Positions 1 through 6,962 of a stretch of 64,000 bases of DNA are shown here, in pieces; position 1 is the first letter of the stretch; every line of letters starts with the position of its first letter. Both the position numbers and the translations under genes were made by a program. The stretch covers positions 1,934 to 65,933 of the forward strand of contig CAZWAK010000007.1 in NCBI GenBank assembly GCA_964631865.1, in the 5' to 3' direction. Under the pieces are notes generated by a model. That model searched no databases. It was not told the origin of the DNA and worked only from the letters and a program-made list of their open reading frames with translations. Source of the stretch: an uncultured Heliobacteriaceae bacterium (GTDB taxonomy: Bacteria; Acidobacteriota; Blastocatellia; RBC074).

Positions 1-188
1 GCATTTTGGGGCCTGCGCCCGCACCGCTGGCCCGCATCAAAGGCGAGCATCGGTTGCAGGTGTTGATTAAGACGAAGAACCGCAGAGTCGCGCGCGAGGC
101 ATTGGATGCGGCGATGCTGGCGTTGAAGGAGCAAGCGTGGGATTTGCGGATGCTGAATGTCGAAGTTGATCCGGTGAGTTTGATGTAG
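1..188 (+). CDS. priA: Primosomal protein N' (PriA), C-terminal end; the gene starts upstream of the window
   Basis: The ORF tail ...[51 protein letters not shown] resembles a PriA C-terminus. It is in frame from position 1 and stops with TAG at 186-188. Confidence 0.55.
137..188 (+). repeat. Direct repeat copy 1: native 3' end of priA (att-like)
   Basis: gtgggatttgcggatgctgaatgtcgaagttgatccggtgagtttgatgtag recurs at 1441-1494 (about 1 mismatch over the 45-nt core) and at 2968-3024 (about 80% identical). Confidence 0.8.
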
Positions 189-269
189 CCTGTCCTTGAT
201 GCGATTATACAAAACTGCATTATGCAAAACTGCATTATGCGAATCTGTATAATTCAAGCAGGAGACAGT

Positions 270-1439
270 ATGAAAAACCCATTTCAATATGGCCGCGAAT
301 TAGGTGTGGATGAGTTGGTAGACCGTGAAACTGAAGTTGCCGAAGTAGTCAGCGCGATTCAGGAGGGCGGAAAACTTTTCCTCATTGGCCCGCGCCGTTA
401 CGGGAAGACTTCTATTTTGCAAGCCGCGCAAGCACAGGCTGAAAAAGCTGGAGCCATAGTGTTACGTTACGACGCCGAAGCGTGGCCGACTTTAGATTTG
501 TTAGTCCGCGCTGTTTTGGTCGAAGCCACCCAACGTCTTAGCACCAACCTCGATAAAGCGGGCGATAAGCTGCGCAAGTTTTTTTCCCGCCTGAAGCCTG
601 AAATCAATTTCAATCTCGCCGATCAAACCTTGAGCGGCAGTCTGGGTGTCAATGCGGACGACGCCAAAGAACCAATCGCACAAACCATGCTGCTGGTTGA
701 TTTGCTAAATGGTCTGGAAAAATTGGCCGCCGAAGCTGCGCGTCCGGTCGGACTGATGTTAGATGAATTCCAGAAAGTCATCATGCTCGGCGGCGAAGAA
801 GCAGAAGGGCAAATTCGCGCCGCAGTGCAACGGCATCGCCACGTCGGTTACGTTTTTGCTGGCTCGAAAACTCGCCTGCTGACCGATATGACAGGTCATC
901 CATCTCGTCCGTTTTATCGCCTGGGCGAGCGTCTTTTCATTGGCCCTGTGCCACGTGCGGATTTCACCGCCTTTCTGCTCGCAGGCTTTAAGCAAGGCAG
1001 CATCAAACCTACCGACGCGGGCATCGCTGCGATTCTCGATCTGGCCGAAGAGGTTCCTTACAATGTGCAACGGCTGGCGCATATTTGTTGGGATACGCTG
1101 CAAGTCGCACGCAGCAAAACGCTGGACGAAAACATCGTGCGGCAACAATTGGAATTGCTGGTCAGACGCGACGACACTTTTTACAGCCAGCTCTGGAATC
1201 AGCTTACAGCCGTGCAACAAAAAGCGATGATTGCTCTGCTGCGCGAAGGTGCTGTCCGCCTGCATTCGCAACAGGTCACACGCGCCTATAACCTGTCCCC
1301 TGCCAGCATGCAACGCGCGCTGAAATCGTTACAGGAACGCGACCTCGTGCGCGCGGAAGAAACGATGGGAACTGTGCGCCTGCGATTGGAAGACCCCTTT
1401 TTCGGAGCGTGGATTCGATTGGTGACAAGCAATTCTTGA
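270..1439 (+). CDS. AAA+ ATPase of the archaeal-ATPase (ATPase_2) type with a C-terminal DUF234-like winged-helix region; orphan
   Basis: Walker A GPRRYGKTS and a Walker B-like LMLDEF. GGAGA lies 6 nt upstream of the ATG at 270; the ORF-track start at 222 is probably too early. Confidence 0.7.
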   Translation: MKNPFQYGRELGVDELVDRETEVAEVVSAIQEGGKLFLIGPRRYGKTSILQAAQAQAEKAGAIVLRYDAEAWPTLDLLVRAVLVEATQRLSTNLDKAGDKLRKFFSRLKPEINFNLADQTLSGSLGVNADDAKEPIAQTMLLVDLLNGLEKLAAEAARPVGLMLDEFQKVIMLGGEEAEGQIRAAVQRHRHVGYVFAGSKTRLLTDMTGHPSRPFYRLGERLFIGPVPRADFTAFLLAGFKQGSIKPTDAGIAAILDLAEEVPYNVQRLAHICWDTLQVARSKTLDENIVRQQLELLVRRDDTFYSQLWNQLTAVQQKAMIALLREGAVRLHSQQVTRAYNLSPASMQRALKSLQERDLVRAEETMGTVRLRLEDPFFGAWIRLVTSNS

Positions 1440-1440
1440 G

Positions 1441-1494
1441 GTGTGGGGGTTGCGGATGCTGAATGTCGAAGTTGATCCTGTGAGTTTGATGTAG
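1441..1494 (+). repeat. Direct repeat copy 2 of the priA 3' terminus
   Basis: Near-identical to 137-188. It begins 2 nt after the ATPase stop and again ends in TAG. Confidence 0.8.
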
Positions 1495-1520
1495 GCTATA
1501 ATGCCGCCGAGGTAAAAGTT

Positions 1521-1850
1521 ATGAGCATCGTCGTTGAAGCCGAAGAATATTTGTCGTCATTGACGCGCGCCGAGAAAGCGCAGGTATTGCAATGGATCGT
1601 GCGCGATTTAGGCGATGCATTTCCCGGCATTGAAAGCACAGCAGGCGTTTGCGGTGGCGCAGCACGAATTGTCCGCACGCGCATTCCGGTTTGGACGTTG
1701 GAACAAGCACGACGATTGGGCACGAGCGAAGCTGATATTCTCAAAGCTTTTCCTACGTTGCGCGCGGAAGACCTGGCCAATGCGTGGGCGTATGTCCGTT
1801 CGCACAAACAAGAGATCGAACAGGAAATTCAGGAAAACGAAGAGGCTTGA
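1521..1850 (+). CDS. DUF433 domain protein (putative antitoxin-like HTH partner of a DUF5615/PIN-like protein)
   Basis: The motif ...ARIVRTRIPVWTLEQARRLGTSEADILKAFPTL... is typical of DUF433. It is followed 4 nt later by a DUF5615-like ORF. Confidence 0.65.
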   Translation: MSIVVEAEEYLSSLTRAEKAQVLQWIVRDLGDAFPGIESTAGVCGGAARIVRTRIPVWTLEQARRLGTSEADILKAFPTLRAEDLANAWAYVRSHKQEIEQEIQENEEA

Positions 1851-1853
1851 GCG

Positions 1854-2111
1854 ATGGCGCGTTTGTATTCGAATGAAAACTTCCCGTTGCTTATGGTGCA
1901 GGAATTACGACGTTTAGGCCATGACGTTTTGACCGTGCAGGAAGCGGGCAACGCCGACCGAGCCATTCCCGATGATGCGGTGTTAGCGTTTGCGATGGCT
2001 GAAGGCGTCTCCAAAAAGTGCAGACACTGTCTGCAAAATTCATTTGCGAGAACCGAAAAGACGCGGCACTTGCTCGAAACGCAACGCATCGTCAAAGGGA
2101 AAAGCCAATGA
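1854..2111 (+). CDS. DUF5615-like (PIN-like) protein, probably degraded or truncated after about residue 50
   Basis: N-terminus MARLYSNENFPLLMVQELRRLGHDVLTVQEAG...DDAVLAFAMAEG matches the DUF5615 pattern. The rest (VSKKCRHCLQNSF...) does not resemble the family. Confidence 0.45.
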   Translation: MARLYSNENFPLLMVQELRRLGHDVLTVQEAGNADRAIPDDAVLAFAMAEGVSKKCRHCLQNSFARTEKTRHLLETQRIVKGKSQ

Positions 2112-2162
2112 AGAGAAAGCGCATGTGCTACAATCCGGCGCGAATCGTTTGAGGGAACTTGT

Positions 2163-2532
2163 TATGACGACAATCACGTTGGAAGTACCGGATTCATTGG
2201 CGTCGCAGCTTACGCCGTTGCGTGATCGCTTGCCCAACATTTTGCAGCAAACGGTGGGCGCTTGGTCATTGCAGGTTGCGCCAAACCAACTCAGCAAATC
2301 GTTTCCGGTCTACGAAGCGATGATGGATTTTTTGGCGAGTGGGCCGACGCCGGAACAGATCATTGCGCACAAATCGTCACGGCCTTTACAGCGCCGCTTG
2401 GAAGCGTTGTTGGACAAACAGCGCGAAGACGGATTGACGGAAGAAGAAACGGCGGAGTTGAATGCGTTCGATCAGGTCAATGACGTGATGAGTTCGCTGA
2501 AGCTGCGAGCACGGTGCGCGCTTCGTTCATGA
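2163..2532 (+). CDS. Hypothetical protein (about 123 aa) immediately upstream of an HNH endonuclease
   Basis: Start trimmed to MTTITLEVPDSL... with ATG at 2163. No recognisable domain. It ends 10 nt before the HNH gene. Confidence 0.45.
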
Positions 2533-2541
2533 GCTACGACT

Positions 2542-2958
2542 ATGCCATCAGCCAATGTCCCCGCACGGCTTCGGCGACAAGTCATCGCCAGAGCCAATCA
2601 CGTTTGTGAATACTGCTTGCTACATCAGGACGATGCCGACTTTTTGCATCAGATAGATCACATCATCCCGCGCAAATACAACGGCCTGACTATCTTCATC
2701 ATCTTGGCGCTTGCTTGTCTGAAATGTAACAAAAACAAAGGCCCTGAAATTGCCGGACTTGATCCGATTGATAATGAAATCGCGCCCCTCTTCAATCCAC
2801 GCACGCAAAGTTGGGACGACCATTTCGAGTTGCTCGGCGCATTTATCCTCGGCAAAACCCGTATTGACCGTGCGACAGTCGCGGCATTGAAATTGAATGA
2901 TCCGATTCGCGTCAACCAGCGGCAGGAACTCATCGCCGAAGGCCAGTATCCACGCTAA
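2542..2958 (+). CDS. HNH endonuclease
   Basis: CEYCLL...H-x3-DHIIPRK...ALACLKCNKNKG match the HNH motif with its Cys pairs. Confidence 0.75.
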   Translation: MPSANVPARLRRQVIARANHVCEYCLLHQDDADFLHQIDHIIPRKYNGLTIFIILALACLKCNKNKGPEIAGLDPIDNEIAPLFNPRTQSWDDHFELLGAFILGKTRIDRATVAALKLNDPIRVNQRQELIAEGQYPR

Positions 2959-2967
2959 GACGAAAAT

Positions 2968-3024
2968 GGGTGTGGAATTTGCGGAAGCTGAATATCGAGT
3001 TGATCTCGTGAGCTTGACGTCAGC
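2968..3024 (+). repeat. Direct repeat copy 3 of the priA 3' terminus (diverged)
   Basis: gggtgtggaatttgcggaagctgaatatcgagttgatctcgtgagcttgacgtcag, about 80% identical to copy 1. It starts 10 nt after the HNH stop. Confidence 0.7.
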
Positions 3025-3114
3025 AATTGTGTTTAGAAAACGGCTGAAAATAACAACGAGTGACCAGCGCGCAGGCAAGTCACTCGTGGCAGCGGGGTGT
3101 GAGAGAAATCAAGG

Positions 3115-4338
3115 CTATTTCATGACGGCGCGGCGGCTCACTTCGACGACGCGGCTTTCGGCAAAGGTTGTGACCGGATAGCCGAGCGGCTCGACGTCTT
3201 GGACGTTGACTTCGCGCGCCATCAGCGGCAGCGGTTCGGCGGCGGTTTCAATGCCTGCCAGTTTGCCGAGCAACCATTCGTATTGATTCGTGATTTGCTC
3301 CCAATCGTAGCGGGCACGCACGCGGGACATGGCGCGGGCGCGATACTCGTGGATGAGCGCGGGGTGTGCCAGGACGCGGCGCATCTGGGCGGCTAAATCT
3401 TCGACCGAATCGTAGCTGATGCCAGCGTCGCCCATCACTTCCAAATTCTCCGGCGTGTTCAGCACCAGCGCGCAATTGCCTGCGCCCATCGCTTCGATCA
3501 ACGCGGGATGTGTGCCGCCGACTTCGGTCGCGTGAACGTAGCAATAGGCATTTTGCTGCAATGCGCGATAATCTTCGCCAAAGACGAAGCCGAGGAATTT
3601 GACGCGCGGGTCTTTCGTGCTTTTCAGTTGGGCGATGTACTCTTCCGCGTACGGTGCGCCGCCGACAATCACGAGCGGCAAATCGGTTTTGACTTGTTCA
3701 TAGGCTTCGATGACGAGGTGCGCGTTGTTTTCCGGCTCCAGACGGCTCACGTACAAAATGTAGCGATTGGCTTCCAACTCGAATTTTTGCAGGGTTTCCG
3801 GCGCGGCGCGGCGTTCGACATCAGCGCCGTAAGCGATCATCGAAGAATGTTTGCGATAGCGCGTGGCGTAGTAATCCTGTATGACCTGCGCATCGGTCAC
3901 AATCGCGGTGGGCAAAAACGTCGAAAGCCATTCCGACACGAAATAATACTGGCGTCCGAGCCAATTCCACTTTTTGCGTTTGCGCTCCAACCCGTCCACA
4001 TTCACGAGCGTCGGCGTGCCCAACAAACGCGGCAACACGGCGAAGATGCTGTTCGCTGCATTGCAGATCAAAATGACGTCGTAGCGGAAAAACAGCGCGT
4101 GCAGGACGGAGAGGAACGTATGAATGACGGTATCGAAATATTTGTGACGAATGGTGGGAAGAACGACCAGGTTGACACCTTGATGGGTGCGCGTGGAGCC
4201 GCTGGCGTAATGTTTGCGCCCGTACACGGTGACTGCGTGACCGCGTGTCACCAGTCGGGTGCTGAGTTGTTCAGCAAAGGTCTCAAACCCGCCGTAATTC
4301 GCCGGAATTCCGCGCGTCCCCAGAATGGCAATTTTCAT
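3115..4338 (-). CDS. Glycosyltransferase family 4 (DUF1972-type N-terminus)
   Basis: MKIAILGTRGIPANYGGFETFAEQL... and a C-terminal GT4 EX7E-like region (EVGGTHPALIEAMGAG). Confidence 0.8.
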   Translation of the reverse strand: MKIAILGTRGIPANYGGFETFAEQLSTRLVTRGHAVTVYGRKHYASGSTRTHQGVNLVVLPTIRHKYFDTVIHTFLSVLHALFFRYDVILICNAANSIFAVLPRLLGTPTLVNVDGLERKRKKWNWLGRQYYFVSEWLSTFLPTAIVTDAQVIQDYYATRYRKHSSMIAYGADVERRAAPETLQKFELEANRYILYVSRLEPENNAHLVIEAYEQVKTDLPLVIVGGAPYAEEYIAQLKSTKDPRVKFLGFVFGEDYRALQQNAYCYVHATEVGGTHPALIEAMGAGNCALVLNTPENLEVMGDAGISYDSVEDLAAQMRRVLAHPALIHEYRARAMSRVRARYDWEQITNQYEWLLGKLAGIETAAEPLPLMAREVNVQDVEPLGYPVTTFAESRVVEVSRRAVMK

Positions 4339-4523
4339 AAATTCAAACTAGAGAAAGTGAACCACAAAAAGCGAGGTAGCCCGTTTTAGAACGCAATCCG
4401 CACGGCTCTAATGGGGCTTGGGTTATCAAGGATGTCCAGGGGAGGCCATCAAGAAACTGGGTCTACTATAATAATGCTGCCTCGTTTTGTCACGCCGTAA
4501 TTTGCCTTTGGTTCAGAAAGTTT

Positions 4524-4769
4524 TTAGTCGGTTTTGGACGAAACAAAGCCCGGCGACTTCACTTTTTTCTCGCCGCGATCTTTGCTATCCCAGAGCGCCA
4601 CAATTTTTTCGATGCGGACGAAGAACGTCTGGTCATCTTTTTCCAATTGCAGAATATCGCCTTCAATTTGGATGACTTTGCCGCTCACTGTGCCCGCGCC
4701 AAAGCTCACGTCAATTTCTTTGCCAATACGATTTGCCAAAATTTCTTTCACTTGCTGCGACTCCTTCAC
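4524..4769 (-). CDS. Small hypothetical protein, possibly Sm/LSm-like
   Basis: 81-aa ORF with a beta-strand-like GKVIQIEGDILQLEKDDQTFFVRIEKIVAL. No firm family assignment. Confidence 0.4.
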   Translation of the reverse strand: MKESQQVKEILANRIGKEIDVSFGAGTVSGKVIQIEGDILQLEKDDQTFFVRIEKIVALWDSKDRGEKKVKSPGFVSSKTD

Positions 4770-4916
4770 TACGTGGTGTCAAAAAGGTGCGTCATTGTAC
4801 TGCAATCCGGCTGATTAGAAAAACCGCGCGCGCCGAAAGTCAGTTTATTTTCTGCGCGAATGTTTGTTATAGTCCCTGCTTACGAACAAGCACATCTCAT
4901 CACGACAGAGGAATTC

Positions 4917-5165
4917 ATGCTCGCAAAAGTTTATGTGACGCTCCGCAACGGCGTGCTCGACCCGCAAGGCAAAGCTATTCATCACGCCGCCACGACCATT
5001 GGTTATCAAGGCATCGCAGACATTCGCCAGGGCAAGTATTTTGCCATCACGTTTGACGATTCCGTAGACGAAGCGCAGGCGTACGAACAATTGGAAAAGC
5101 TCGCGCATGACGTGTTATCGAATCCGGTGATCGAGGATTACCAAATCGAATTGTTGGCCGATTAA
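4917..5165 (+). CDS. purS: Phosphoribosylformylglycinamidine synthase subunit PurS
   Basis: MLAKVYVTLRNGVLDPQGKAIHHA...YFAITFDD... is the PurS signature. Start chosen at the internal Met. Confidence 0.7.
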   Translation: MLAKVYVTLRNGVLDPQGKAIHHAATTIGYQGIADIRQGKYFAITFDDSVDEAQAYEQLEKLAHDVLSNPVIEDYQIELLAD

Positions 5166-5168
5166 GTT

Positions 5169-6608
5169 ATGCCTCTTCCTGCAAAAATCGCGGCGCAATT
5201 ACGTGCCATCTGTGGTGACGATGCGGTCTTGACGGACGCGGCGGACTTGCTCGTCTACGAATACGACGCCGTCACGACGCACCGCGCCCAACCGCTTGCC
5301 GTCGTCTTTCCGCAAACGACCGAACATGTCGCGGGCGTCGTGCGCGTGCTGATGGAGCACGGCATTCCGTACGGCCCGCGCGGCGCAGGCACGGGCTTGA
5401 GTTCGGGCGCAATTGCGCTCGGTTGTGAGGCTGGCGAAGGCGCGGTCATCATTGAAATGGCGCGGATGAATCGCATTCTGGAAATTGACTTCGCCAATCA
5501 ACGCGCGATTGTGCAACCGGGCGTCGTGAATTTGCGGCTCTCGCAAGCCATCGCGTCGCAAGGCTATCACTACGCGCCTGACCCGTCGTCGCAAGCTTCC
5601 TGCACGCTCGGCGGCAACGTCGCGGAAAACTCCGGCGGCCCGCATTGCCTGAAATACGGAATGACGACGAATCACATTCTCGGCCTCGAAGTTGTGTTGC
5701 CCAACGGCAACATCGTGCAATTCGGCGGCGACGCGGCGGACACGATTGGCTACGATTTGCTCGGCACGTTTATCGGCAGCGAAGGCACGCTCGGCATCGC
5801 CACAAAAATCATCGTCAAACTCAGCCGCAACCCGCAAACCGTCGTGACGTTGCTCGCGGATTTTATGGACGTCAACGATGCGAGCCGCGCCGTGTCGGCG
5901 ATCATTGCCGCAGGCTTGCTGCCGGCGGCGTTGGAGATGATTGACCAGCCCACGATTCTGGCGGTCGAATCGTCCATTTACAAAGCGGGTTATGCCACCG
6001 ATGTCGCGGCGTGTTTGATTGTCGAGTTAGACGGCCTGCGCGCAGGGATTGATGGGCAGGCGCAGCGTGCGAAAGATATATGCCTCGAACACGGTGCGCG
6101 CGCGGTGCGAGAAGCGCGCGATGAACTCGAACGCAAAAAACTGTGGGCCGGACGCAAAGGCGCGTTCGGCGCGCTCGGTCGCGTCAGCCCCGATTTGTTT
6201 GTGCAAGACGCGGTTGTGCCACGCACGAAATTGCCCGAAGTGCTGGCCGGGATTTACAAGGTCGCGGAACGGCGCGGCATCCGCTTGTGCAACGTTTTCC
6301 ACGCGGGCGATGGCAATTTGCATCCGACCATCAACTTTGACGGACGCAATGCCGACGAAGTCGAGCGCGTGCATCTCGCCGGCAAAGAAATCATGAAGCT
6401 ATGCGTGGAAGCGGGTGGCTCAATCACGGGCGAGCACGGCGTCGGCGTAGACAAGATTGGTTATATGCCGATGATCTTCGATCAAGCGTCGCTGGATGCG
6501 ATGTTGGCCGTCAAAGAAGTCTTCAATCCGACGGGACTATGCAATCCAGGCAAAGCCATTCCGGCGCAAAAGATGTGTCGGGAGTATCGGAAGGCGGTGC
6601 AGGGGTAG
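5169..6608 (+). CDS. FAD-binding oxidoreductase, glycolate oxidase GlcD / D-lactate dehydrogenase family
   Basis: 479 aa with an FAD-binding PCMH domain (GAGTGLSSGA) and the C-terminal ...GSITGEHGVG... signature. Confidence 0.8.
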   Translation: MPLPAKIAAQLRAICGDDAVLTDAADLLVYEYDAVTTHRAQPLAVVFPQTTEHVAGVVRVLMEHGIPYGPRGAGTGLSSGAIALGCEAGEGAVIIEMARMNRILEIDFANQRAIVQPGVVNLRLSQAIASQGYHYAPDPSSQASCTLGGNVAENSGGPHCLKYGMTTNHILGLEVVLPNGNIVQFGGDAADTIGYDLLGTFIGSEGTLGIATKIIVKLSRNPQTVVTLLADFMDVNDASRAVSAIIAAGLLPAALEMIDQPTILAVESSIYKAGYATDVAACLIVELDGLRAGIDGQAQRAKDICLEHGARAVREARDELERKKLWAGRKGAFGALGRVSPDLFVQDAVVPRTKLPEVLAGIYKVAERRGIRLCNVFHAGDGNLHPTINFDGRNADEVERVHLAGKEIMKLCVEAGGSITGEHGVGVDKIGYMPMIFDQASLDAMLAVKEVFNPTGLCNPGKAIPAQKMCREYRKAVQG

Positions 6609-6650
6609 GGCTATAAAAACTCTACTTTTCCGATCATTTTTGCTATTTGA

Positions 6651-6962
6651 TCAGGCACGACTTAGGGCAGCAAGTTTTTCTCGCAGGGGAGAGACATTGT
6701 TTTTTCGGAAGGCTTCGGCAAAGGCATGGTCGGTCTCGATGCTTTGATCTATTTCTTGACGGTGATCGTAGTAATAGGCCATCGCCGCATAAACAGCCGA
6801 CAAGGGGAGGTCATACTTCACAGCAATTTCTTCCAATGACTGCCCCAATCGGAAATGCATTAACACGACATCCGCCACCGTGATACGAGAATTGGCAAGG
6901 CGTGGCTTGTTGCCTCGCATCTCAGCATCAATTTCAATATGCGCATCTAAAACGACTTCCAT
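6651..6962 (-). CDS. DUF433 domain protein (second copy, no DUF5615 partner)
   Basis: ...RITVADVVLMHFRLGQSLEEIAVKYDLPLSAVYAAMAYYYDH... Start taken at MEVVLD. Confidence 0.6.
   Translation of the reverse strand: MEVVLDAHIEIDAEMRGNKPRLANSRITVADVVLMHFRLGQSLEEIAVKYDLPLSAVYAAMAYYYDHRQEIDQSIETDHAFAEAFRKNNVSPLREKLAALSRA

Follow-up and report, generated by a model that had tools for sequence, protein, structure and literature searches.

Restriction-modification units are known to insert into genomes with a long target duplication (Nobusato 2000; Furuta 2010, PMC2853133), and the repeats that they leave are direct, often imperfect copies of the target of more than 30 bp, some of which lie over the 3' ends of genes (PMC2853133). 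In fungal mitochondria, mORFs (Allomyces atp6; Glomus atp6/atp9/cox2/nad3) give rise to hybrid genes with a duplicated C-terminus, one copy of which is foreign (PMC3630166). Among two-gene modules, DUF433/DUF5615 pairs (COG2442/COG4634/PIN_10, Mut7-C) are predicted toxin-antitoxin systems in which, as at the locus described here, the DUF433 gene comes first and the DUF5615 gene starts 3 nt further on, on the same strand. VapB45 of M. tuberculosis (Rv2018, PDB 5af3) is such a DUF433 antitoxin (PMC5499597). Finally, HNH nucleases of the PtuB type (PDB 8eea, 9u9y, 9nnb, 9vh1) are found in Septu (PtuAB), together with the ABC-type ATPase PtuA, and in the retrons Ec78/Eco7.

The locus that we analysed lies directly 3' of the replication gene priA in a soil acidobacterium. 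Within the window, by which we mean the whole 64-kb stretch of DNA under study, positions 1521-2958 hold four ORFs, all on the + strand. The original prediction had treated these ORFs as one unit, "Cassette 2". Comparison with related loci instead identifies 1498-2969 as two apparently unrelated selfish modules that were joined by a deletion: in the related locus L009, the last two genes, a small protein (hereafter the partner) and an HNH nuclease, lie alone between two copies of the priA end. The features of the locus are as follows.

1-188, + strand: 3' end of priA (PriA_C; PF18074, E=3.2e-10); full-length priA lies 5' of the same cassettes in L001, L005 and L009
137-188, + strand: priA-end copy 1, the last 52 nt of priA (repeat family D1/D2)
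270-1439, + strand: cassette 1, a single ATPase of the AAA_16/ATPase_2 type whose C-terminal region is winged-helix-like (Pfam AAA_16, AAA_14, ATPase_2, MarR_2)
1443-1494, + strand: priA-end copy 2, which has its stop codon and 93-98% identity to copy 1
1521-1850, + strand: DUF433 antitoxin-like gene, intact, 109 aa (PF04255, E=8.7e-17, 61 bits)
1854-2006, + strand: N-terminal 51 codons of a DUF5615 toxin gene (PIN-like, Mut7-C group; PF18480 positions 2-48 of 110, E=3.4e-9)
2007-2050, + strand: junction segment within the chimeric ORF, 44 nt, with no match in any locus or frame
2051-2111, + strand: 3'-end remnant of a YhcG/DUF1016 (PD-(D/E)XK) nuclease gene, the in-frame tail of the 85-aa ORF, EKTRHLLETQRIVKGKSQ and stop
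2122-2163, + strand: leader of the HNH cassette, where homology to L009 starts, with an extended -10-like TGTGCTACAAT at 2124-2134
2164-2532, + strand: partner protein, 122 aa, of a conserved helical family
2542-2958, + strand: PtuB-like HNH nuclease, 138 aa, with a CxxC...CxxC zinc site (PF01844, E=4.4e-8)
2970-3022, + strand: priA-end copy 3, starting 11 nt past the HNH stop

The secondary copies of the priA end (copies 2 and 3 of the window and copy 2 of L009) have the same start, G[C/T]GTGG, and run through to the stop codon. Copy 3 of the window is the most decayed, with 89% identity over 27 ungapped nucleotides followed by a 1-nt deletion and with its stop codon lost, and it has an ATG>ACG change in common with the displaced copy 3' of the HNH gene in L009. 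No other such repeats were found in the 64-kb window. We rejected the priA end as a general hotspot, as only 1 of 72 distant priA loci has it in duplicate; metagenome contigs, scanned for the exact pattern, gave no match. An integron gene cassette was likewise rejected: the repeat is the coding 3' end of priA and not an attC-like imperfect palindrome, and no integrase is adjacent in the window, L001, L005 or L009. Composition did not argue for a foreign origin, as the GC content of the cassettes (0.51-0.54) is near that of the window (0.547 +/- 0.039). Rfam gave no match to an RNA element in 1-3300 at E up to 1, and a consensus scan of the locus detected no promoter and no excess of terminators. 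Cassette 1, between priA-end copies 1 and 2, is context and outside the finding; its ATPase corresponds to a gene of 389 aa in L001. A functional tie of this ATPase to the HNH nuclease was rejected, as no other locus carries it and the ATPase adjoining the pair in L023 shows no significant similarity to it.

In the relative L005, the upstream module is intact, with the order DUF433, DUF5615 (113 aa), pentapeptide protein and YhcG. The DUF433 gene of the window has the same length as its counterparts in L005 and L012 (86-87% identity), a dN/dS of about 0.1 and a dS equal to that of priA. An ORF of 85 aa (1854-2111) starts after a gap of 3 nt behind the DUF433 stop; its position directly after DUF433 had been predicted correctly, but with a spacing of 4 nt. 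The prediction that its first ~50 residues match the DUF5615 family and the rest does not also stands, as 113-aa relatives align through residues 1-50/53 only (89-92% identity); DNA homology to L005 in this region stops at about 1993. The tail of the ORF is made up of the final 18 codons of a YhcG/DUF1016 gene, read in frame: 2051-2098 is 92% identical to 10005-10052 of L009, the end of a DUF1016_N+YhcG_C gene, and the remnant is 80% identical to 9780-9820 of L005. The junction segment before it contains a palindrome, TGCAGACAcTGTCTGCA, at 2019-2035. Alignment to the full-length family located the lesion and did not bear out an intact short variant, as 20 positions with a conservation of 90% or more among the 113-aa relatives, D81 and D83 included, are missing from the ORF. 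Residues 54-113 of DUF5615 were absent from all six frames of 1501-2600 (tblastn, ten relatives). Of the frameshift or deletion proposed originally, the frameshift is ruled out, as the missing part is encoded in no other frame, and the deletion is kept, with DUF5615 codon ~51 fused to the YhcG/DUF1016 3' end. Inactivation of the toxin, the other part of that proposal, is supported: only PF18480 positions 2-48 of 110 are left, and the missing ~60 residues are in no frame.

As relatives carry DUF433-DUF5615-pentapeptide protein-YhcG, about 2.4 kb were lost here and the toxin is dead. In L012, DUF5615 was lost independently and DUF433 was kept. Comparison with these relatives shows 1521-2111 to be the remains of a predicted toxin-antitoxin operon of the DUF433/DUF5615 (COG2442/COG4634) type, namely an orphan antitoxin and a dead chimera. 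Unlike the other predicted pairs of this type, the local toxin gene keeps only codons 1-51, fused to the YhcG tail. There is nothing unusual in this part of the locus, which is a known type of predicted toxin-antitoxin pair in decay.

The second module is the partner with the HNH nuclease. Across the 73 genome loci found with the partner, the HNH gene lies directly 3' of it, at 10-60 nt, in 56, and loci with the pair span Acidobacteriota, Chloroflexota, Cyanobacteria and Bacteroidota. Three HNH homologues that were chosen regardless of a partner all had a small upstream ORF corresponding to the partner C-terminal domain. The ORF pattern is not due to chance, because dN/dS against relatives is 0.07-0.08 for both partner and HNH. 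Homologues of the partner and of the HNH also fell on shared contigs. Together, these data identify the two genes as a genuine co-conserved pair. In L027, L029, L033, L034, L039, L055, L070 and L077 the HNH gene is truncated or gone and the partner is kept; the nuclease decays before the partner. The pair also occurs on cyanobacterial plasmids, once adjoining CRISPR-cas genes, and the partner family is present in model cyanobacteria, for example Nostoc PCC 7120. The HNH homologue of this Nostoc strain, WP_010999635.1, is intact and is accompanied by WP_044523710.1. A search of viral contigs found no relatives of the partner, and a phage origin of the pair was rejected on this ground. The literature on HNH-toxin type II modules, on DUF433+DUF5615 and on toxin-antitoxin cassettes with target duplication does not describe the pair.

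The partner gene encodes 122 aa at 2164-2532, as the 123 aa at 2163-2532 given originally are out of frame. Its leader starts directly 3' of the priA stop codon in L009, and a simple -35/-10 consensus scan found no promoter in this leader. Within the family, the N-terminus MTTITLEVPD.LA is nearly invariant, a variable linker follows, and the C-terminal three-helix domain (about residues 47-122) is conserved. The family comprises 2,609 clusters at 50% identity, and no Pfam, NCBIfam or PADLOC model matches it. This agrees with the prediction of a protein without a recognisable domain: the partner matches no known family and is co-conserved with the HNH nuclease, so the objection that it might belong to an unrelated family does not apply. 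Its N-terminus, MTTITLEVPDELA followed by two helices, has a layout like that of RHH proteins. However, the partner as an RHH antitoxin is not supported by profiles, as Pfam RHH_1 matched 1 of 57 members (E=0.12). The N-terminal domain is missing from many family members, and the partner has no ATPase motifs.

The HNH gene starts 9 nt past the partner stop; that a small HNH gene comes just after the partner was foreseen, although at 10 nt. The loop of the window HNH, HIIPRKYNGLTIFIILALAC, had been called atypical. It is typical of its clade, as the closest homologues have ...YNGATIFINLALAC, and the true deviation is the change of the central Asn of the H-N-H motif: Ile is found (N54I, codon 2701-2703) where 54 of 56 family members have this Asn. 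A second deviation at a conserved HNH position is G109D (codon 2866-2868). A small inversion in the loop (the reverse complement of ATCTTCATCATC encodes DDED) was considered and rejected, as homologues share TIFIN/TILIN in frame and only codon 54 differs from the closest ones. The identical sequence with Ile54 is present in four independent public assemblies (L001-L004), and because of this neither the DUF5615 nor the HNH lesions are errors of the present assembly. Carrying N54I and G109D, the window HNH may be weakened. Its structure model (pLDDT 95) has as best PDB matches the PtuB proteins of retron Ec78/Eco7 and of Septu, with a TM-score normalised to the query (TMq) of 0.64-0.66, and PADLOC PtuB models match residues 11-132 (E=9.8e-12).

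The whole 138-aa HNH superposes on PtuB, and the superposition covers the HNH core and the C-terminal beta/helical part. The window protein differs from PtuB in that it is without roughly the first 45 PtuB residues, and identity is 18-22%. The gene beside this HNH encodes a small helical protein and not the ABC-type ATPase PtuA, and there is no reverse transcriptase. Membership in Septu was rejected, as a PtuB-type HNH is present and an adjacent PtuA is absent; the ATPase of cassette 1 is separated from the HNH gene by a priA-end copy and the DUF433 module.

We then turn to the flanks of the pair. Direct repeats of at least 20 nt, imperfect copies of the end of a host gene, flank it in 11 of 47 loci as against 3 of 471 shifted control segments, and the other 36 loci have no flanking repeats. 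Inverted repeats of at least 20 nt were found in none of these 47 loci. The repeats are longer than 30 bp in nine loci (37-147 nt) and 25 nt long in L080, and L026 has a segmental duplication of at least 314 nt. With L026 left aside, the copies of the remaining ten loci are 650-1,470 nt apart, with little between them beyond the two genes. The targets are housekeeping genes, among them priA, an Aminotran_3 gene, an Amidohydro_2 gene and a SpoU methylase. Codon differences between the copies are synonymous in 35 cases and non-synonymous in 17, and because the copies differ mostly at synonymous sites, one gene-end copy was probably brought in from another lineage together with the cassette. In L009, the priA-joined copy reads AGC CTG, and AGT TTG is found in the displaced copy, in copy 1 of the window, in L005 and in L012 (AGT TTA in L014). 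Between the window and L009, dS is 1.15-1.26 for the pair as against 0.36 for the adjacent priA.

No common motif was evident at repeat boundaries across loci, and no integrase or transposase was found inside the pair cassettes. The same kind of flanking is found for cassettes without a nuclease, namely that of the AAA_16 ATPase at window 270-1439 and a second one in L023, and therefore the duplication mechanism is not specific to the HNH. In the window itself, the pair has the YhcG remnant, and not a priA-end copy, on its left side. An empty target site was not recovered; metagenome scans gave distant priA genes only. Taken across loci, the arrangement shows 2122-2969 to be, on comparative grounds, a self-contained mobile cassette of about 0.85 kb, found at the ends of housekeeping genes beside a duplicated piece of ~40-150 nt.

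Like restriction-modification units, the pair is a small selfish nuclease unit with direct repeats of its target and no transposase or integrase inside. The features by which Furuta and Nobusato recognised such insertions, that is, repeats of more than 30 bp, an insert below 20 kb and no mobility genes, are found for the pair as well, as read from the flanking copies alone. In contrast to restriction-modification units, its second gene is not a methyltransferase, and at about 0.85 kb the unit is much smaller. The pair resembles mORFs in its order of host gene, replacement end, endonuclease gene and displaced native end, and in copy differences that are mostly synonymous. However, mORFs are organellar LAGLIDADG or GIY-YIG genes, often fused in frame to the host gene, whereas the pair consists of two free-standing genes with an HNH enzyme on bacterial chromosomes, and cleavage of the target is putative. 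Like type II toxin-antitoxin modules, the pair has two small genes in the same direction, here separated by 9 nt, the first of which encodes the putative neutraliser. Its distribution is likewise patchy and horizontally mobile, and the nuclease is the first to decay, which leaves an orphan partner. It differs from them in that the partner has no recognisable DNA-binding fold, and our literature search turned up no type II family whose toxin is a PtuB-like HNH nuclease.

Overall, we favour, as the rather probable reading, a model where a deletion joined the two modules and where 2122-2969 is a mobile nuclease/inhibitor cassette of the addiction type that was inserted with a long target duplication. 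In this model, the C-terminal three-helix domain of the partner would bind the HNH nuclease and hold its activity in check, and the N-terminal domain, which is optional, may have a regulatory role for the operon. Cells that had lost the partner would be harmed by the nuclease, so that the cassette is retained. One copy of the gene end would arrive with the cassette and be joined by homologous recombination at the gene end, either through a single crossover of a circular form or through homing-like repair.

Part of the evidence can also be read in terms of defence, and it is possible, if on balance unlikely, that the pair is a minimal anti-phage system in which the partner takes the place of PtuA and restrains the PtuB-like nuclease until infection releases it (abortive infection). 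The pair would then move passively, as a defence islet gene does. The PtuB-like fold and the PADLOC PtuB matches point this way, as do neighbours of a defence or toxin-antitoxin kind (the AAA_16 ATPase, YhcG/DUF1016 nucleases and DUF433/DUF5615), the cyanobacterial plasmids with the one copy beside CRISPR-cas genes, and L090, which has another HNH, an XRE/ImmA-like pair and a DUF433 remnant at the same position after priA. Nevertheless, there is no PtuA, the cassette 1 ATPase (AAA_16/ATPase_2 type) fails PtuA models, and the partner matches no PADLOC model. Many toxin-antitoxin pairs also defend, and the defence reading is compatible with addiction. The nuclease might instead serve the movement of the cassette, as a bacterial counterpart of fungal mitochondrial mORFs, which we consider doubtful: the HNH enzyme would cut the unoccupied end of a host gene, perhaps targeted or regulated by the partner, and repair from the occupied allele would copy the cassette together with a resistant gene end and push the native end downstream. 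Carried through, this reading would make the pair a two-gene, free-standing HNH homing cassette with its own replacement gene end, spread across lineages and phyla by nuclease-stimulated homologous repair that keeps the host gene intact, and the array of priA ends in the window the scar of repeated events; this joint claim is as tentative as its parts. The mORF-like layout of gene, replacement end, endonuclease genes and displaced native end is in its favour, together with the mostly synonymous differences expected when one copy is foreign, the AGC CTG of the priA-joined copy in L009 against AGT TTG/TTA in the displaced copy and the priA ends of the clade, the far greater divergence of the pair than of priA between the window and L009, the patchy distribution and the frequent decay of the nuclease. 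It is weakened by repeat boundaries without a common motif, by the same duplication around nuclease-free ATPase cassettes and by the 36 of 47 loci without repeats. Moreover, free-standing HNH homing genes are usual in viruses, yet viral contigs held no relatives, and the closest relatives by fold, the PtuB proteins, are defence effectors and not homing enzymes.

A nuclease-free cassette uses the same site, and the pair might have no role in its own movement. Here, the 52-nt priA end would be the attachment site for a recombinase of the tyrosine or serine type with its gene elsewhere, and the cassettes would be integrase-less remnants, or mobilised in trans, as passive cargo of an integration hotspot. 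The common start of the three secondary priA-end copies and their extension to the stop codon would suit a site-specific recombinase acting in trans, and an integrase gene lies 3' of the pair in Nostoc PCC 7120. We nonetheless regard this as quite improbable: no integrase lies in or adjoining the cassettes of the window, L001, L005 and L009, the repeats elsewhere come from quite different genes and measure 25-147 nt, which is ill-suited to one recombinase with one site, the priA end is unduplicated in 71 of 72 more distant priA loci, and the rest of the 64-kb window is free of such repeats. The addiction or defence module brought up originally is a candidate reading consistent with all the findings made here.

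The partner and HNH genes thus make up a large unnamed family in which a Septu-like PtuB nuclease has a small helical protein, and not an ATPase, as its companion. The pair is among the smallest units so far to be found between long imperfect duplications of a host gene end. Mobility of this kind has been described mainly for restriction-modification systems and in fungal mitochondria. That the copies differ mostly at synonymous sites is a clue that one of them moves together with the cassette. Should the partner inhibit the nuclease directly, the pair would represent a new toxin-antitoxin or defence architecture and a simple means to study how nucleases of the PtuB type are kept in check.

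Near the start of the window, the 52-nt segment that closes priA, with its stop codon, is present as three direct copies that bracket two insertions; no other repeats of this kind were present within the 64-kb window.

Features of window 1–3022
1–188: priA 3' end, last 188 nt (PriA_C, E=3.2e-10)
137–188: priA-end copy 1
270–1439: cassette 1, an AAA_16/ATPase_2-type ATPase gene between copies 1 and 2
1443–1494: priA-end copy 2 (93–98% identical)
1521–1850, plus strand: DUF433 (PF04255, E=8.7e-17)
1854–2111, plus strand: DUF5615 ORF, 85 aa (PF18480, profile positions 2–48 of 110 only)
2164–2532, plus strand: partner, 122 aa
2542–2958, plus strand: HNH protein, 138 aa (PF01844, E=4.4e-8)
~2970–3022: priA-end copy 3 (89% identity across 27 gap-free nt, then a 1-nt deletion)

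The four ORFs considered here all lie on the plus strand between copies 2 and 3. One of them, originally predicted as a 123-aa ORF at 2163–2532, had been started one base out of frame and is corrected to the 122-aa partner at 2164–2532. Identical genes are present in four independent public assemblies, and the nearest relatives are metagenome-assembled genomes labelled Blastocatellia (Acidobacteriota). The cassette 1 ATPase has a C-terminal MarR/TrmB-like region and weak PADLOC matches to mad8 and PDC-M05A.

The partner matched no Pfam, NCBIfam or PADLOC family, as expected from the prediction that it has no recognisable domain. A word-indexed search returned 159 homologues, and a partner profile matched 2,609 cluster representatives (50% identity) at E≤1e-3. 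Among 73 loci from species-representative genomes, retrieved with the partner alone, 56 carried an HNH of the same family 10–60 nt downstream; the source genomes belong to Acidobacteriota, Chloroflexota, Cyanobacteria, Saprospiraceae, Entotheonella, Methylomirabilota and Verrucomicrobiota. Conversely, all three HNH homologues selected independently of the partner had a small upstream ORF (82–98 aa), either with a 4-nt overlap at the HNH start or ~60 nt ahead of it, so that the suggested hypothetical/HNH two-gene module was recovered from both directions. As this upstream ORF corresponds to window partner residues ~47–122 in two of the three cases, the conserved core of the partner is its C-terminal small helical domain. 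The nearly invariant N-terminus (MTTITLEVPDELA) is part of an optional extra domain. Both genes have dN/dS values of 0.07–0.08 and are under strong purifying selection, and partners and nucleases undergo exchange. The partner was also found by tblastn on 21 cyanobacterial plasmids, among them pCC7120alpha. At an Oscillatoriales locus (L052, 5572–7060), a 365-aa DGQHR-motif protein takes the place of the HNH after the partner. Second HNH paralogues in two further loci (L020, 4961–5808, and L023, 11157–11970, both minus strand) follow different upstream proteins, which have only a C-terminal L-T/S-x-x-E-x-x-E-L...LLKARA-type helical motif in common.

Comparison of the HNH structure model (pLDDT 95) with solved structures gave PtuB of retrons Ec78/Eco7 and of Septu as best relatives over the full length (query-normalised TM-score 0.64–0.66). 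This agrees with PADLOC matches to PtuB and shows, at the level of the model, a PtuB-like HNH. Despite this likeness to Septu, the pair was rejected as a member of that system because PtuA is absent. The loop, earlier called atypical, is so only in part: as the closest homologues share it (YNGATIFINLALAC), the hydrophobic loop characterises the clade, whereas Ile54 occurs in the window's HNH alone, the central Asn of the H-N-H motif being present in 54 of 56 aligned members. G109D is a second change at a nearly invariant position, and at least two such departures occur in 8 of the 56. No substitution affects catalytic His40, the Asn63/Lys66 positions or any of the four zinc cysteines. Judged from its substitutions, the window's HNH may be weakened. 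Elsewhere the partner is kept while the HNH is truncated (L027, L033, L055, L070 and L077) or absent (L029, L034 and L039).

In three relatives (L009–L011; partner 86% identical), the genuine priA end and a second 52-nt copy, 854 nt apart, enclose the pair alone. Its leader immediately follows the priA stop, and the second copy begins 14 nt downstream of the HNH stop. Among 47 non-redundant genome loci whose flanks could be used, 11 had the pair bracketed by direct repeats (≥20 nt, E<1e-4), as did 3 of 471 control segments of equal length placed at shifted positions in these loci; inverted repeats of this size bracketed the pair in none of the loci tested. After refinement, ten repeats were 25–147 nt long and 86–98% identical, and the eleventh (L026) was a segmental duplication that was longer still, reaching at least 314 nt. 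The longer repeats are segments of the housekeeping gene next to the pair; among them are the 3' ends of priA, an Amidohydro_2 gene and one further gene, an internal segment from the 3' part of an Aminotran_3 (HemL-like) gene and, in a Nostoc genome, the 5' end of a SpoU methylase gene with its ribosome-binding site. One full copy of the host gene survives in each case, which would be the outcome of selection if insertions duplicating tens to hundreds of bases land anywhere. Most repeat pairs enclose the two genes alone, and no integrase or transposase is present between the repeats. Overall, the partner–HNH pair behaves as a mobile cassette.

In one relative, L005, a 37-nt duplication of a promoter-like segment (…TATGCTAAAATG) brackets the pair (5657–5693 and 6797–6833), with one copy 26 nt upstream of the partner gene and its counterpart immediately ahead of DUF433, an arrangement suggestive of duplication of the DUF433 promoter on insertion. 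A long palindromic element (GCCCGCGAAGTCGGGCGACAG...CTGTCGCCCGACTTCGCGGGC), REP- or MITE-like, adjoins the pair on differing sides in three relatives (L005, ~6600–6700; L012, ~5765–5830; L014, ~1650–1720).

Neutral decay of one repeat copy is expected to give mostly non-synonymous changes. Between the copies at six loci, however, 35 codon differences were synonymous and 17 non-synonymous (10:2 in L055 and 9:1 in L015). The copies thus seem not to have simply diverged in place but to have both evolved as functional gene ends in different lineages, so that one probably came in together with the cassette. Between the window (2164–2958) and L009 (8001–8795), dS of the pair is 1.15–1.26, about three times that of the adjacent priA (0.36, 616 codons). 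DUF433, by contrast, matches priA. The excess in the pair is consistent with its replacement or exchange at the same site. Where the copy joined to priA in L009 reads AGC CTG, AGT TTG or AGT TTA is found in the displaced L009 copy and at the end of priA in the window, L005, L012 and L014. Downstream of the HNH, the displaced copies of L009 and the window share an ATG>ACG change. Though few, these sites point in the same direction as the mobile endonuclease ORFs of fungal mitochondria (mORFs), in which the endonuclease ORF brings a foreign gene C-terminus and the native one is displaced (PMC3630166).

Pairs of DUF433 and a Mut7-C-group PIN-like protein (COG4634/PIN_10) are already known as a predicted toxin-antitoxin type, and VapB45 of M. 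tuberculosis is a DUF433 protein with a solved structure (PMC5499597). In the window, this module is a decaying remnant. Full-length DUF5615 relatives (113 aa) align only to residues 1–50/53 of the ORF (84–92% identity), bearing out the observation that only its first ~50 residues match the family. Of the two lesions originally considered, a frameshift was rejected because residues 54–113 left no trace in any frame of 1501–2600 (tblastn, ten relatives), and a deletion held, with a foreign tail fused in frame. Window 2051–2098 aligns with the 3' end of a DUF1016_N+YhcG_C nuclease gene (92% identity in L009, 80% in L005), and the ORF tail (EKTRHLLETQRIVKGKSQ, then stop) matches the YhcG C-terminus (...IEKTRHLLETQRIIKGRK, then stop) in frame, showing that the last stretch of the ORF derives from this different gene. 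As L005 has the order DUF433, DUF5615 (113 aa), a 531-aa pentapeptide-repeat protein and YhcG, a ~2.4-kb deletion from DUF5615 codon ~51 to the last 18 YhcG codons yields the window's arrangement. Nothing matched the 44-nt junction (2007–2050); inside it, at 2019–2035, is a perfect 7-bp-stem palindrome, TGCAGACAcTGTCTGCA, which may be left over from the process that caused the deletion.

The lost DUF5615 part includes 20 positions at least 90% conserved among close relatives, D81 and D83 among them. DUF433 is intact and, as its dS against L005 and L012 (0.87–1.03) agrees with that of priA (1.10), looks vertically inherited. In L012 (6878–8650), DUF433 is kept, DUF5615 is wholly gone and a pentapeptide-like gene directly follows DUF433, a toxin loss independent of the window's; in toxin-antitoxin pairs, decay usually begins with the toxin, as it has in this module. 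In the window, DUF433, DUF5615 and YhcG (with the deletion between them) precede the partner–HNH pair. In L005 (5720–9859) and L012 the pair comes first, followed in L005 by DUF433, DUF5615, pentapeptide and YhcG and in L012 by the same genes without DUF5615. The module order at 1521–2958 is thus a circular permutation of the L005 arrangement, which would fit excision as a circle and re-entry elsewhere.

Gene-end duplication is not peculiar to the HNH, as cassette 1, which encodes neither nuclease nor recombinase, is also set between priA-end copies. In a Blastocatellia genome (L023), two 114-nt copies (3631–3744 and 5439–5552, 86% identical) of an ABC-F ATPase gene 3' end enclose an AAA_16/ATPase_2/nSTAND1 gene (4156–5337, minus strand) immediately upstream of a partner–HNH pair; gene-end duplication therefore also accompanies nuclease-free cassettes. 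This ATPase has no significant similarity to that of cassette 1. The left neighbour of the window's pair is the YhcG remnant, not a priA-end copy, and no empty site, that is, a target without the insert, was found. At the closest metagenome priA relative (L090, 6603–9000, 75% identity), priA is followed by another small HNH protein (119 aa, minus strand); the locus also has an XRE-type HTH gene, then a 338-aa ORF that is ImmA-like by position after the HTH gene only, and an 83-aa DUF433 remnant without toxin. Thus, the post-priA region in the wider clade is a variable islet of conflict genes.

Together, these data show a co-conserved two-gene unit under purifying selection, with a PtuB-like HNH, a partner with a small helical core, target-gene duplications and a nuclease that is frequently lost or truncated while the partner is kept. 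We consider an addiction-type mobile cassette a reasonably probable explanation. The partner would bind and restrain the nuclease, antitoxin-like, and the nuclease would penalise loss of the cassette, to which recombination between the repeats on either side could otherwise readily lead. Horizontal transfer, with homologous recombination at the end of the host gene, would spread the cassette together with one copy of that end. A defence role, with the HNH responding to phage, has the PtuB likeness on its side and lacks the Septu ATPase-gene counterpart PtuA; it is somewhat unlikely. True homing, in which the HNH also cuts the target, would resemble the mORFs, and the nuclease-free cassettes have duplicated gene ends as well; we regard it as doubtful. 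Addiction, homing and defence are not mutually exclusive. That the pair is passive cargo of a recombinase hotspot is improbable. Every secondary priA-end copy, including that of L009, has the same first base (G[C/T]GTGG), which would also suit a site-specific recombinase. The priA end is not a general hotspot, being duplicated in 1 of 72 distant priA loci.

Besides the mORFs, restriction-modification (RM) units offer a second close precedent through their 'insertion with long target duplication' (PMC2853133). No description of the partner–HNH pair was found in the literature searched, which covered part of the journals. The pair can best be seen as a nuclease module, either toxin-antitoxin-like or Septu-like, in which the partner is undescribed; its mode of insertion is so far documented for RM systems and mitochondrial endonuclease ORFs. 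On pCC7120alpha of Nostoc sp. PCC 7120 (L170, 64268–66193), an intact pair (WP_044523710.1 and WP_010999635.1) is annotated 'hypothetical protein' and 'HNH endonuclease', and a site-specific integrase gene lies 96 nt after it. In this model cyanobacterium, the pair would offer a convenient experimental system.
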